Assembly (NCBI GenBank): GCA_035292445.1
Contig: DATDQB010000023.1
Span: forward strand, 89,533 to 153,532
DNA: 64,000 bases
Source of the DNA: Candidatus Omnitrophota bacterium
GTDB lineage: Bacteria; Omnitrophota; Gorgyraeia; Zapsychrales; Zapsychraceae
Reading direction: 5' to 3'
Notes under the pieces: model-generated
What the model was told of the DNA's origin: nothing
Database searches by the model: none
Seen by the model: the letters and a program-made list of their open reading frames with translations, nothing else
Part shown: in pieces, positions 2,014-6,516 of the stretch
Position numbering within the stretch: the stretch's first letter is position 1
Layout: each line of letters begins with the position of its first letter
Made by a program: the position numbers and the translations under genes

Positions 2014-5000
2014 TTATCCTAATGAACACGATTCAAAGGGGTATCCAGGGCAATCTGTATCAGTGCAACATGGGCCGCCTCCTTGATCACACGAAAGCAA
2101 AGGCGGACACCAAACCCAGTTGCTACAATTATCTTGTACCGAGCCACAACCAGTCGGGCTCCATCCGTCGCAAGGATCAATAGGGACGCAAGACTGTGAG
2201 CAATTATCGGACTGGCTGGTCCAGTTGCCTCCGCTGTCACAAAAAGCACTCACCGTACCGCTGCAGCCACCCGGGCAGGCGTTCGGTCCCCAATTTGTGT
2301 TGGCTGTCCAACCACCAGGAAGCGTTACGCTGCCGCAGCCATTGCCGGTGGTATAACCTTGCGAAGAGCAGGTTGGCGGGCCCCCGCTGCAAGTCGAGCT
2401 TGTCGGTCCGGACCATACAGAATTTTCACAATCATAGCTAGCCGATCCCGTATCTGGTCCAGTTGAATCAGTGACAGTGGTAGAATTACCGCTGGCCGCT
2501 CCTGTCGTACTACCTGAACAATTAAAACCGCCGGCGCTCCAATTCATTGGTTGAACACCGCAAGCCAGCTTGTATGCCGTACAGATACCAGAGTTAGTAC
2601 AAGGAGGGCCTGAGGCCAGACATTGCCAACGCCACTCGAATGTCGCATCGATCGGGCTAGTGTCTATGGTTCCGGAGGAACAGCCAACGGCTTGTGAAGG
2701 TTGCGAGCCATATGTTCCCGGCGTACTGCCACAAACACCGTTAGTGCAAGGAGCATTACATGTAGCATTAGGCGTGCTGTCACAACAGGATATGGTACCG
2801 TTGGCGGCCGAACCCCCAAAACACAAAGCATCTTCGTCCCCTGAAGTATTACAAGTACCGCTGGTGCCAATCGGGGTCCACGAACCGGAAGAGCATTGGT
2901 ATTCCTGCGTTCCTGAGGTCGTATCGCAAATACTTGATGGACCAGGACTTTTACAGCAGAATGAAGCCCCCTGAGCATGCGTACCTGAAGTACATTGGGC
3001 ATCGGGAAGGGTGTTTGTCCCGTTGCAGCCCGTTCCCCCGCTTGTCCATCCGCTGAATGAGCAAGTATAAGCATTAAGCTGATCGCAGATATAGTTTTGC
3101 CCCGATGTCCAAATGGCCCAACCTCCCGCTGCTCTGGGTTCGCCGCAATAGGCATCGAAAGAGCCGGTAAAATTATCCTGTTCGTTGACAATATAATGAA
3201 ATTCTCCACAACGGCCATCCGCAGGTGTTATACCTTGACAGAAAGTTTGCCAGCCCTTCAATTGTCCACCAGGGCAGCCATCACAACAGTTTTTATAGGT
3301 ATAACTGCCGGAGAGCGTACCTGCCGTACAGGTGCGTGTTTGCGATCTAGAAGAGCATGATGTGTCCCATGTCGGTGTAGGTAGAGGCGTGGGTTCTGAA
3401 TAGGCCGTTACACTTTGAGTGTTCAGTACGGTATCAGGGCCGGCATCCGACCAGGTAATTGGACAGTCTTGGATGCTGGCTTGACAAACGTTGCCTGAAC
3501 AATTATTGCTGCAGCATTGGCTATTAGCTGTACAACCGGCACCGTCACTGCAACAGGAGGTGTTACAAGCTTGTGAGCTTGATCCAGAACAGTTGGCGCC
3601 GCCGCACGAAGGAGCAGGATTATCGCAAGTACGTGTTTGGGTACCACCGCCGCAAGATACGGAACAAGCGCTCCAACCGGACCATCCGCCATTAACAGGG
3701 GAACAGCTGAAGTTACAAGTGCCCCCTGGACAATCAGCGGCGCCTGTACAACATTTGTACAAATTCGAGCATACTCCTTGACCGACCGGACAACAGCCCC
3801 AATACCAGTCGGTAGTACAAGTGTTGCCGCAGGCACCCACAGGAGTTGCTCCGGTGCAACCCGGCGCGCTAGGACCTACACACTTCAGACCGCTGGCACA
3901 AGTCTTGTTGGTACATTGGTTGGCAGCATTACACCAGTTAGCTCCACAGGTAATTGAACAGGACGCATTTGTATATGAACCGGATAAGCTCCCATCATCA
4001 CAAGTACGTGTTTCACTGATACAGGTACACTGCTCTGTACCATTCAAATAAGCGGTAACTGAACTGCCAGAACTGATGCTTCCTCCCCAAGGTAAATTAC
4101 AAGGATTCTTGGTTTTCGAGCACATGCCGCTGGGTGAACAGCCAAGCCCTTGAGGAGAATCGTCACAATGCCATCGCCATTCCGCAGAAGTATCACCATA
4201 AGTTGCCTGGCTAGGAGTCCCTTGGGTACAGCCATCCACAACACTGTTATCGCATTGACCGTTGTCACATATCCCACAACTTTCCTCTGCGCCCGGACAG
4301 CTTGGAGAGCCTGTGCATTGAGTATTAGTGCAATATGTATTGCCGTCATCGCTACAAGTGGTGCAGTCTGTGCCTGCGCCACCATCACAGCATATAAGAT
4401 TAGCCGCTATGGGTGTTCCGTTGTATCCCACGCAACTGTTACAAACACATGAACCTCCGGAGGCCGTGTAACCGTTAATACATGTAACAGCGCAATGATC
4501 GCCCCCTCCAGGACAAGAGGAAACAGCTGTTGCCGTTCTGTTTTGAGTGAGAGCTGATCCATAACCAGCACAATTCGCAGAATTGGGAACACTGCCGCTG
4601 CAAGTGCAAGTCGTTACTGAACATGACTGGTTCGTATAAGAACCGGATAAAACGTCGTTATTACATGAGCGGGTCTCACTGGCGCAGGAGCTGCCGCAAG
4701 ACACGGAAGAGGATTGATAGGCGGTGACGTTATTCCCGTGAAGAACGGTCGCCCCCCACGGCGCCGTACAATTTGCCGAACAATTATTTGTTTTATTGAC
4801 CCAAAGACCGACGTTGTTACAATCCGCGCTGACCGTTCCGGTACAATTTCCCGGGCAGGCTGTTGAATAGGGAGTGCTTAGCGCTTGACCGCCCGGCAAG
4901 GTGACATTACCACAGCCGTTGCTGGTCGTGTAGGCTTCGTCAAGACAGGCTGACCCTACGCACGTAAAGTTGACTGTGGCCCCGTTCACCGAATAGTTAA

Positions 5001-6516
5001 AAGTTTGACCGTTACTTAACCCGGGATGGGCGGTCGTAAGGACGTTCCCTGCACAGAACGGCCCGAAAGTATTGTTATCGTCGTCTGTATATAAACTAAC
5101 GCTGGCAGGATCTCCGCTGCCGGAAGTCAGTCCTCCCGGGTTGGCGCATACTCCAGCCGGCGCGCGATCCGAACGCGACCAGCTGGTGGCGTTGTTAGCG
5201 CCGGAGCCCGAGACATTCCAAAGCGCGGCAAAGGTGCCGCTTCCTCCAACAATGGCCCGGGTATTGCACGTTACGCTGCTCTCATTGCCCCAGCAATCCA
5301 TACGCAAACATCCTGAACCTGATCCAGGACTGGAAGGGTTACAATTAGCATCGCAAGCGCCTGTACAACCAAAGCCAGACCCGTTACAGGCGGCACCGGC
5401 CGAGCCCTTGCAATTGGGGGTATAATCCCCGCACGTATCAAATGTATTATGACAACAGCCCGAGCAGCATTCATCATTTTGGCTACACGGGTCACTATCG
5501 GCAAAACATGAAGGAGTACCACAAACGTTTGCAACGCCGCCACCGCCGCATGATTCGGGAAATGTACAACTCCCGCAATTTAATGTCCCCCCACAACCGT
5601 TGTTAATACCAGAGCCGCAATTAAATCCTAAGCTGTTGCAGGTAGCCGGTGTGCAGCAGCTGTTATTAAAACAGACTTGAGGGTTGGTACAGGCGCAGTC
5701 GGCAGGCGAGTTGCCGCAATTTTCGCTGCAGTTACACGCGCCATCATTGGTTTGCGACCCGCAATCCTGGCAGCACGTATCAGATCGTTCATTCAGATCC
5801 GCACAACAAATGACGGTGTCTCCGCAGGTATCCGCGCAATCAGAGCAGTATCTCTGATCATTTACTACCTCTCCATCGGCGGGGCAGCAAAAGCCGTCAC
5901 TGTCTGTGCCGCAGTCCTGACAGCAAGCGGGGTTAAAGACTTCACCAACGCTACAGATAGTATCGCCGCAGGGAGGCGTCACGGGGCAAGTACCGTTGGC
6001 CTTAGTTTCAAGGGGGCCGGCGGCAGAAGCGGTGGACCGGCAACACTCAGTACCGTTATTTTGGGCAGACGTATCGGAAGGGCCAGCGCAATACCAATCA
6101 CAGCAATTCCCTCGCCCTAACATGCCTTCATCGACACAGGTGCCACAATTGCCGTCATGCGGGGCGCATAAAGTAGTGTCACAGCAAGGGCCCACCGTGA
6201 TTCCGGCCAAATTTGATTGCCCGCTGACAGCGGCTTGGAGGAAACTTTCAAATTCCGCTTGTGTTTTGGTGGGGACAAAAATGTCAAAACCGGAAGTATT
6301 GATAATACACCAATAATTGGATACTCTTGTCCCATCGGTAGCCGAGCTCGAGCCAAAAGATGATGTATTGAGGTCACAATAAGGCGTATTACTTGGGCAT
6401 TGAAACCCTCCACCAGTGATGGGAATATTGCCGGGTGTTTGAGCAAAGGCAAGCGAGGCCCAGCCTGCTATCAGCAGAAATGTGAGAATTGATTTTTTAA
6501 ACCTTTGGTCAACCAT
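2014..6516 (-). CDS. Giant (1500 aa) secreted cysteine-rich modular protein with a thrombospondin type-1 repeat and internal repeated modules; likely surface adhesin/fibre component
   Basis: Single long ORF with an N-terminal signal peptide ([26 protein letters not shown]). Cys is roughly 15%. A canonical TSP1 motif ([29 protein letters not shown]) lies at about nt 3547-3690. It is tightly coupled to the upstream tail-fibre gene (2-nt gap). Repeated modules: three WG..SVTAY...SGSYTN..SC, two GCG.VTLPGG, two EWRW.C. Confidence 0.75.
   Translation of the reverse strand: [1500 protein letters not shown]

Follow-up and report, generated by a model that had tools for sequence, protein, structure and literature searches.

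Thrombospondin type-1 repeats (TSRs) are textbook adhesion modules of animals and apicomplexans. In eukaryotic TSRs the RxR of the Trp-Arg ladder contributes to the ligand-binding face, and the repeats receive C-mannose from DPY19, an enzyme of GT-C fold, and O-fucose from POFUT2; in some animal TSRs, too, the Trp number two. The TRAP/MIC2-type adhesins of apicomplexans are mosaics of vWA and TSR domains. It is from animals and apicomplexans that TSRs are best known (PMC3417536), and a search of the literature turned up no account of TSP1 repeats in prokaryotes. Omnitrophota are ultra-small bacteria with host-dependent traits and type IV pili, whose large open reading frames (ORFs) include adhesion domains (PMC10066038); the Omnitrophota literature examined, that study included, does not mention TSP1 or cysteine-rich modules. 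Here we describe G1, a gene for a cysteine-rich mosaic protein that contains one TSR, in a 64,000-nt stretch of contig DATDQB010000023.1 from a Candidatus Omnitrophota bacterium. We refer to the whole of this stretch as the window.

As read from its sequence, the G1 protein is a Sec-exported, disulfide-type, non-enzymatic string of small (45-70 aa) Cys-stabilised beta modules. Its TSR is genuine and belongs to a compact subclass whose placeable carriers are prokaryotic in context, and the protein is probably a modular adhesin rather than a rare eukaryote-like import.

The thrombospondin type-1 repeat of G1

An isolated 53-aa segment of G1 matched PF00090 (TSP_1) at 33.3 bits, against a gathering score (GA) of 21.6, and covered profile positions 2-49 of 49. 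When the protein was scanned in 200-aa pieces, TSP_1 (28.4 bits) was the sole Pfam family above threshold in the whole of G1. A Pfam scan of the full-length protein was empty even at E <= 1, as was an NCBIfam scan, which we attribute to the HMMER bias filter acting on a sequence of biased composition. The full-length scan thus misses a domain that segments recover, implying that automatic annotation of cysteine-rich mosaics systematically misses embedded domains. Against PDB sequences, whole G1 matched TSR-containing chains alone, and solely at aa 913-1009: thrombospondin-1 (TSP-1; 1LSL, E 6.6e-13), UNC5D, properdin, semaphorin-5A and BAI1. The best single-domain alignment was to TSR3 of human TSP-1, at 40.8 bits.

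Because G1 is compositionally biased, an empirical null was run, in which a hidden Markov model (HMM) built from 64 canonical metazoan-type TSR units was applied to 2,000 shuffles of G1 that preserve local composition. The real protein scored 35.6 bits at aa 943-989; the shuffles averaged -1.8 bits (standard deviation 2.0) with a maximum of 11.3 bits, and none of the 2,000 came to a third of the observed score. An AlphaFold2 model of aa 937-993, computed with 25 related units as the alignment (26 rows in all), has a pLDDT of 92.7 and predicts the elongated three-stranded TSR fold. All 15 of the PDB matches that Foldseek returned for this model at E <= 1e-3 are TSR domains, with TM(query) from 0.38 to 0.70; they include TSP-1, ADAMTS13, UNC5, properdin and complement C7, with C6 and C8 at lower ranks. 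By Pfam score, PDB sequence matches, shuffle control and predicted fold, aa 943-989 of G1 is a genuine TSP1 repeat.

The six canonical Cys occur in order (C952, C956, C965, C976, C984 and C989) and align with the 25 related units and with TSP-1 TSR3; two further Cys, C971 and C988, are extra. There are only two Trp (W946 and W949), a 3-residue deletion falling where TSP-1 has the third Trp of WxxWxxW. The RxR pair is absent, a 2-residue deletion relative to 'xxRxRxC' leaving one Arg (R963, in 'TQTRTC'), a trait typical of the compact subclass described below, and the third segment is shorter than in solved TSP-1 repeats. The initial annotation, made from the sequence alone, had proposed a nearly perfect TSP1 consensus at about nt 3547-3690 that should be recognised in a domain scan. 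The scans bear out the repeat itself, which spans nt 3550-3690 (the string quoted in that annotation is aa 945-978, nt 3583-3684). "Nearly perfect" says too much of a unit in which a Trp layer, an Arg of RxR and two residues of a loop are missing and two Cys are additional.

A compact TSR subclass and its carriers

An exhaustive HMMER search with G1 aa 381-1500 against 1.84 billion cluster representatives gave 5,172 matches at E <= 1e-3, and the carrier counts below are among the 148 listed matches other than G1 and G2, its tandem paralogue (P0108-P0255). The best stretches cluster on three spots of G1, namely the first 'SVTAY' module, the TSR and aa 1317-1386. Two forms of TSR can be told apart among the listed matches. 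About 40 carry the canonical form, with 7+7 residues in two strand segments (for example P0116, an astacin-TSR protein), and at least 14 carry a compact form with 5+5. We define the compact subclass by five rather than seven residues in CG.G-x5-C and in C.G-x5-C; the G1 repeat has the spacing 5,5, each strand segment being two residues below the canonical 7,7. This spacing is found in 41 of 46 units of compact carriers. In canonical carriers the first segment is 7 in all but one of 143 units, and 7,7 holds for 140 of them.

The G1 unit is 51-81% identical to 25 compact units, and 17 positions are invariant, among them all six of the canonical Cys, the two Trp, the single Arg and those of the PxP..GG motif. 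On a compact HMM that was built without G1 or P0256, the G1 unit reaches 82.4 bits, compared with 44.1 bits on the canonical HMM. Human TSP-1 shows the opposite preference, with 44.4 (TSR2) and 63.6 bits (TSR3) on the compact HMM versus 73.2 and 76.4 bits on the canonical one. Most of the units behind the compact HMM come from proteins with bacterial contexts or fusion partners.

The carriers display their repeats in several settings. P0256, whose TSR is 79% identical to that of G1, extra Cys included, was the only protein found by a word-indexed search with the G1 TSR segment; it ends in an LPTAG-plus-TM (transmembrane) sorting signal, and its contig also holds genes for MurJ, ribosomal protein S20 and a protein like PilO. 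In P0108, which adjoins clpP and clpX, 15-17 TSRs follow an N-terminus of prepilin type (GFTLVEVAIVL; N_methyl 20.9 bits, GA 21.2). P0111 and P0148 combine VWA with TSRs. Their cluster mates, P0257 (at 90% identity) and P0259 respectively, lie on compact contigs; the neighbours of P0259 have SdrD_B and TSP3_bac domains, and those of P0257 include an IS200-type transposase. P0224 joins a cohesin domain to TSRs. We take the compact-TSR and module-array proteins to be bacterial on the strength of neighbouring genes and fusion partners, and by the same token the compact-TSR carriers that can be placed are prokaryotic in context, with the form present in many bacterial surface-type proteins. G1 is itself a bacterial secreted Cys-module protein carrying PF00090, a kind already present, automatically annotated, in databases (e.g. 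P0256, P0259).

Two assumptions of the initial annotation are affected by these data. Its view that very few bacterial proteins have bona fide TSRs is overstated for metagenomic sequence space, the compact form alone accounting for the 14 or more representatives noted above. Nor does "eukaryote-like" describe a repeat that scores 82 bits as compact and 44 bits as canonical, in a protein whose other modules have no eukaryotic sequence relatives and no entry in Pfam.

Pilus operons were considered as a home of TSR arrays and rejected: P0108 adjoins clpP/clpX, and prepilin-like N-termini occur in just 6 of 108 prokaryote-type carriers. Pilus display is an occasional context for TSR carriers, not the rule. 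A viral route for the G1 TSR was likewise rejected, no TSR-like units being found in GenBank phage records and those of viral metagenomic contigs being mostly of a different flavour. The latter comprise 31 IMG/VR contigs (L086-L116, giant-virus GVMAG bins included) with TSR-like units, mostly of a third flavour that lacks the third Cys.

A separate observation concerns the genes next to P0256. At 8001-9726 of L083 (NCBI GCA_964491365.1, contig CAZBFU010000001.1), the genes that come directly after P0256 encode a GT-C glycosyltransferase of the PMT family (PF02366/PF16192) and an enzyme of family GT87.

Architecture of G1

The composition of G1 is extreme: 178 Cys (11.9%), 13.7% Gly, 12.5% Ser, 11% Thr and 7.7% Asn. 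The more than 200 Cys (about 15%) first counted do not apply to G1; a total of 204 (13.7%) belongs to G2. Two ENA metagenome assemblies carry a protein identical to G1, one of them on a 205-kb contig, and an ORF on a JGI contig is identical to the C-terminal 896 residues. The identity of G1 in three independent metagenome assemblies indicates that the ORF is real and not an assembly artefact. Features of the protein and its neighbours are listed in Table 1. The N-terminus looks Sec-type, in agreement with the initial annotation, which also listed correctly three 'SVTAY' modules (the third divergent), two GCGxVTLPGG and two EWRW motifs. The "multiple" copies of CGGxLxCGxC..PExCGGGG that it reported reduce to one in G1.

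Table 1. Features of G1 and surrounding genes. Positions refer to the window unless marked L001; aa, residues of the encoded protein.
Feature	Position	Strand	Description and basis
G1, cysteine-rich mosaic protein gene	2014..6516	minus	single ORF, 1,500 codons, 178 Cys
Sec-type signal peptide of G1, aa 1-25	6442..6516	minus	read from sequence: KK n-region, hydrophobic core, AFA|Q; conserved in paralogue G2
N-terminal non-repetitive domain of G1, aa 26-112	6181..6441	minus	best-conserved part, G1 versus G2
Cys-rich region, aa 113-287	5656..6180	minus	CGDxxC...NCCxDC-type motifs and CCDWYC; sequence; no Pfam match
Myxococcota-type repeat, one copy, aa 288-333	5518..5655	minus	CTPxTC..CG..CGGxLxCGxC..P..CGGGG..CG; BLASTP matches of full-length search
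G1-specific cassette, aa 350-530	4927..5469	minus	no counterpart in G2 (16-30% identity)
Module B1, aa 531-583	4768..4926	minus	GCGxVTLPGG...CPGxCxGTVSAxC...W...C; regular expression and sequence
Module A1 ('SVTAY' module), aa 584-634	4615..4767	minus	exhaustive-search hot spot; arrays P0109, P0110
Module C1, aa 745-800	4117..4284	minus	NGxC...GC..GT...EWRWxC...C; conserved in G2
Module A2 ('SVTAY'), aa 805-856	3949..4104	minus	predicted small all-beta disulfide module
Compact TSR, aa 943-989	3550..3690	minus	PF00090, PDB matches, shuffle control, AlphaFold model, spacing 5,5
Module A3 ('SVTAY', divergent), aa 1017-1078	3283..3468	minus	Pro-rich insertion; 44% identity to A2
Module C2 (EWRW), aa 1256-1315	2572..2751	minus	
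P0122-type module, aa 1317-1386	2359..2568	minus	C...W......C......TD...P.TGSA.Y.C.N..WS.....C; exhaustive-search hot spot; array protein P0122
Module B2, aa 1388-1443	2188..2355	minus	
G2, tandem paralogue, 5' part (634 codons)	1..1902	minus	runs off window edge; full length 1,492 aa, 204 Cys (13.7%), no TSR
G2, full gene	L001 14615-19093		
Relic of upstream S74 gene, last ~12 codons, before G2	1903..1940	minus	KEIEELKARQF*; translation and DNA alignment of both upstream regions
S74 gene, 421 aa	6519..7784	minus	signal peptide, two ~85-aa near-identical repeats, C-terminal Peptidase_S74 intramolecular-chaperone domain
Third Cys-rich gene, 676-688 aa	L001 19151-21217	minus in L001	outside window, convergent with G2
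DsbA-like thiol:disulfide oxidoreductase	15410..16309	plus	PF13462 87.5 bits, PF01323 63 bits; CPFC at aa 157; one TM segment, aa ~24-43

Outside the TSR, the whole of G1 gave no catalytic or other match in Pfam, NCBIfam or the PDB (200-aa tiles; PDB sequence search). This includes the N-terminal domain, for which no Pfam match and nothing significant in the PDB was found, and the G1-specific cassette, whose PDB matches were insignificant and of Ig/intimin-like type only. Most of the other modules are of bacterial types. In the full-length search, up to 103 of 105 non-self matches place by BLASTP, all within aa ~80-450 and with a peak at aa 276-350. The ~46-aa Cys repeat of Myxococcota proteins falls in this stretch and dominated the search, 103 of the 105 matches converging on aa 276-325. 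P0109 and P0110 are among the bacterial proteins that have 10-13 'SVTAY' modules in an array, and the module at aa 1317-1386 forms arrays in P0122. Some of the carriers have recognisable N-termini: a lipobox-like 'FQNC' motif lies near the N-terminus of 16 of the 148 listed matches (P0113, P0138, P0150, P0154 and 12 others), and six of the 148 are prepilin-like. Evidently the small Cys modules of G1 are reused on lipoprotein and pilin-type carriers in other bacteria. The expectation that the repeated modules form disulfide-knotted beta structures is compatible with the model of module A, in which it is, like the TSR, a small beta module of disulfide type, similar to FnI and CCP.

The locus

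G1 has been duplicated. G2 begins 111 nt downstream of it, and the two proteins are 81% identical across the first 160 aa. Over their length the two are mosaics, with aa 1-340 and 551-860 at 58-90% identity, and aa 350-550 and everything after ~860 unrelated. The TSR sits in the part of G1 that varies and has no equivalent in G2, which for its part has two copies of the Myxococcota-type repeat. Ahead of G1, and separated from its start by 2 nt, is a gene with a Peptidase_S74 domain (PF13884, 55 bits versus GA 22, aa 325-375 of 421), annotated by NCBI as 'tail fiber domain-containing protein' (HLF18961.1). The 36 nt in front of the G2 ATG still encode the last 12 codons of this S74 gene, which indicates that the duplicated unit was the end of the S74 gene plus the giant gene, and that the relic marks the junction. 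The S74 gene is not in a prophage context, its neighbours being RR-GGDEF, histidine kinase and FIST protein genes.

The third Cys-rich gene of the locus encodes three degenerate units that resemble TSRs (33.5 bits on PF00090 for one of them), together with module-B-like units and CGDxxC..NCCxDC repeats; the latter are similar to motifs of G1 aa 113-287. Its N-terminus ('AQAALEYMLLL', motif AQAALEYMLLLAVVVAIV) is no more than suggestive of a class III (pilin-type) signal, PF04021 scoring 22.9 bits in isolation against a GA of 23.7.

The other flank carries ordinary genes (RR-GGDEF, histidine kinase, FIST, TrmB, DacA-like and GlmS) and a DsbA-like gene. The initial annotation had linked the last of these, 9 kb away, to oxidative folding of G1. 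A membrane-anchored DsbA-like gene with a CPFC motif is indeed present, 8.9 kb from G1 and in a different transcription unit; it is a possible helper of G1 folding, a candidate by proximity.

Farther along the window, a mobile element has probably been integrated at 28389-40482. After two tRNA genes (28389-28596) come the genes of a serine recombinase (28558-30159) and a Prim-Pol/DUF5906 protein (32026-33957), and the type I restriction-modification genes HsdM and HsdR lie in 35485-40482; the GC content falls to 37-44% in parts of this region.

Lineage and distribution

NCBI assigns to 'Candidatus Omnitrophota bacterium' the proteins identical to two neighbours of G1, GlmS (HLF18971.1) and the S74 protein (HLF18961.1). 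The GlmS protein encoded in the flank finds its best matches among species genomes in metagenome-assembled genomes of Omnitrophota, the best at 67% and the other three named Omnitrophota at 56-60%. G1 is an orphan mosaic without a full-length family. A scan of 185,579 species-representative genomes with G1 aa 381-1500 found no relative, and a scan of JGI metagenomes with an N-terminal alignment found the same organism again and nothing else. A word-indexed search with the N-terminal domain was empty but uninformative, since it missed the protein itself as well. Searching metagenomes for homologues, which the initial annotation had recommended, was therefore productive for parts of the protein, as the compact TSR, 'SVTAY' and P0122-type modules were all found in bacterial proteins, and yielded no full-length relative beyond the same population.

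Proposed function and alternatives

We lean, with moderate confidence and from sequence features, towards the view that G1, together with G2, is an extracellular or surface modular adhesin. Alongside G1, the cell would make the tandem paralogue and the secreted, tail-fibre-like trimer that is encoded upstream. The conserved N-terminal third of G1 and G2 may provide a common scaffold or means of attachment, and the interchangeable cassettes, the TSR among them, would bind ligands, either glycans or proteins, on the surface of a partner or prey cell; the variation between G1 and G2 would then widen specificity. G1 would have to be folded oxidatively in the periplasm, for which the DsbA-like enzyme is a candidate, and G1 and G2 possibly work with the S74 fibre. 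This proposal fits the host-dependent, attachment-oriented biology suggested for Omnitrophota (PMC10066038). Of the two roles put forward in the initial annotation, adhesion is thus a reasonable one for a signal-peptide-bearing, disulfide-type modular protein; matrix mimicry is unsupported.

Several observations weigh against an adhesin. At neither end of G1 is a cell-surface anchor recognisable (TM segment, LPxTG, lipobox or other sorting domain), and the larger ORFs scanned in the window include no secretion or pilus genes, a weak point as regards surface retention and export across an outer membrane. The TSR has a single Arg where eukaryotic TSRs have the ladder RxR. We infer co-transcription with the S74 gene from spacing only. 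Finally, full-length relatives of G1 outside the same population are absent from the three assemblies, the 185,579 species genomes and the JGI metagenomes, and conservation can therefore not be used as an argument for function.

The absence of an anchor motif is shared ground with a structural interpretation, in which G1 and G2 are disulfide-cross-linked blocks of an extracellular layer, sheath or biofilm scaffold that recognise nothing in particular. The very high content of Cys, Gly, Ser, Thr and Asn, the lack of a catalytic domain and the two tandem copies are all compatible with such a coat or matrix. Yet typical sheath and S-layer proteins consist of long uniform tandem arrays, of which G1 has none, and it is recognition proteins that more typically show what is seen here: cassettes swapped between G1 and G2, modules in common with pilin-like, VWA, cohesin and LPxTG proteins, and a tail-fibre-like gene alongside; we consider a purely structural role rather unlikely. 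G1 might instead be a secreted toxin, antimicrobial or inhibitor polyprotein whose knottin-like Cys modules act directly or after proteolytic release. Omnitrophota are suspected predators, and several short segments of G1 have knottin-like Cys patterns, but the sole toxin family matched, the spider toxin family PF08091, is far below threshold (13.5 bits, GA 21). Moreover, no processing sites, protease, immunity gene or toxin-delivery system is apparent nearby, and the modules that can be identified (TSR, FnI/CCP-like) serve known proteins for binding or as spacers, all of which makes a toxin very unlikely.

The alternatives that concern the TSR itself fare worse still. A recent transfer of an animal-type TSR from a eukaryote, serving to mimic host matrix, would account for the 40.8-bit alignment with human TSP-1 TSR3 and agrees with the taxa from which TSRs are best known. 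The G1 repeat, however, has the 5,5 spacing of the prokaryote-associated class and not the canonical 7,7, prefers the compact HMM to the canonical one by 82 to 44 bits, and has its nearest relative (79%) in an LPxTG-type protein on a bacterial contig; the other modules of G1 have bacterial relatives only, and there is no animal-like flanking sequence. Such a transfer is highly improbable. That the match is a compositional accident in a protein rich in Cys, Gly and Ser, or that the ORF is not a real gene, is hardly credible. The empty full-length Pfam scan would agree with an accident, and it is consistent with a bias filter acting on biased sequence. We count the shuffle control, in which no score exceeded 11.3 bits, as refuting an accident; the repeat also passes the Pfam gathering score, along the whole profile, both as an isolated segment and within a 200-aa tile, its six Cys, both Trp, Arg and PxP..GG are invariant in 25 related units, and the 4.5-kb open frame is conserved in three assemblies.

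The adhesin interpretation can be extended to the subclass as a whole. Compact (5,5) TSRs could be a native prokaryotic adhesion module of ultra-small host-dependent bacteria (Omnitrophota, and probably Patescibacteria-like organisms), mounted on pilin-like, fibre-associated or sortase-anchored proteins that grip partner cells. We regard this as speculative and quite unlikely. On this view, the locus made up of G1, G2 and the pilin-like TSR protein beside them would serve to recognise hosts and be diversified by its cassettes; the GT-C glycosyltransferase found directly downstream in some genomes (the PMT-family enzyme after P0256) may modify the repeat; and bacteria would hold a sister or an ancestor of the TSR of animals and apicomplexans, and possibly of its GT-C-type glycosylation as well.

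Whatever the fate of that idea, a clean, statistically solid TSR is present in an Omnitrophota protein, and on bacterial contigs TSRs of a distinct, compact subclass are joined to typical prokaryotic display devices, namely prepilin-like N-termini, VWA, cohesin and LPxTG. With the HMM and the spacing rule in hand, the ways in which uncultured ultra-small bacteria hold on to their partners can be surveyed and the origin of the TSR fold studied. G1 itself is one more orphan mosaic, and its value lies in its neighbourhood, where a tail-fibre-like gene, a pair of paralogues with swapped cassettes and a TSR protein of pilin-like type lie together.

Comparison with known systems

With the canonical TSR (PF00090; TSP-1 TSR2-3 in PDB 1LSL/7YYK, properdin, UNC5, ADAMTS13), the G1 repeat shares the framework WSxWSxCSxxCGxG...R.C..P.P..GG..C.G....C....C and its six Cys. 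It differs in having two Trp rather than three, one Arg rather than RxR, the 5,5 spacing rather than 7,7, a shorter last loop and two more Cys; the extra Cys in PAPxCGG is also present in a properdin TSR. It is, besides, a single copy in a bacterial protein, where the eukaryotic C-mannosylation and O-fucosylation machinery is not expected. The closer relatives are the compact-TSR proteins P0108, P0111/P0148/P0259, P0224 and P0256, which are of the same subclass (units 51-81% identical, 5,5 spacing). These proteins bear either TSRs in tandem arrays or a single TSR, in company with anchors or partner domains that can be recognised, whereas G1 has one TSR among unrelated Cys modules.

The other modules of G1 lead to different families. 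Myxococcota-type Cys-rich repeat proteins (P0003-P0005) share the ~46-aa repeat and nothing else with G1, and in them 10-40 tandem copies flank a large non-Cys central domain; the NCBI name of P0005 is 'hypothetical protein [Archangium gephyra]', whereas UniRef has 'Tryptophan synthase alpha cha(in)'. The bacterial 'SVTAY' arrays (P0109, P0110, ~45 of the 148 listed) have the pattern C.(L)PWG......SVTAY......C.SETR.C..G.LSGSY....C and are 42-72% identical to module A2, and the confident small beta-module model of 'SVTAY' resembles the fold of FnI, CCP (Sushi) and vWC modules.

In overall design, TRAP/MIC2 adhesins resemble G1 in joining a TSR to other adhesive modules on a secreted protein. 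G1 differs from them in having no vWA domain, TM segment or cytoplasmic tail, and it is rather in the bacterial proteins P0111, P0148 and P0259 that the pairing of vWA and TSR is mirrored. In Omnitrophota and Patescibacteria, the large ORFs of adhesin-like type (Seymour et al. 2023, PMC10066038) exceed 20 kb and combine numerous TM helices with domains such as discoidin, laminin-G or dockerin; G1 measures 4.5 kb, has no TM helix past the signal peptide and is built of Cys-knotted mini-modules. It comes from the same phylum, the Omnitrophota, and would follow the same proposed logic of extracellular, multi-domain attachment proteins.

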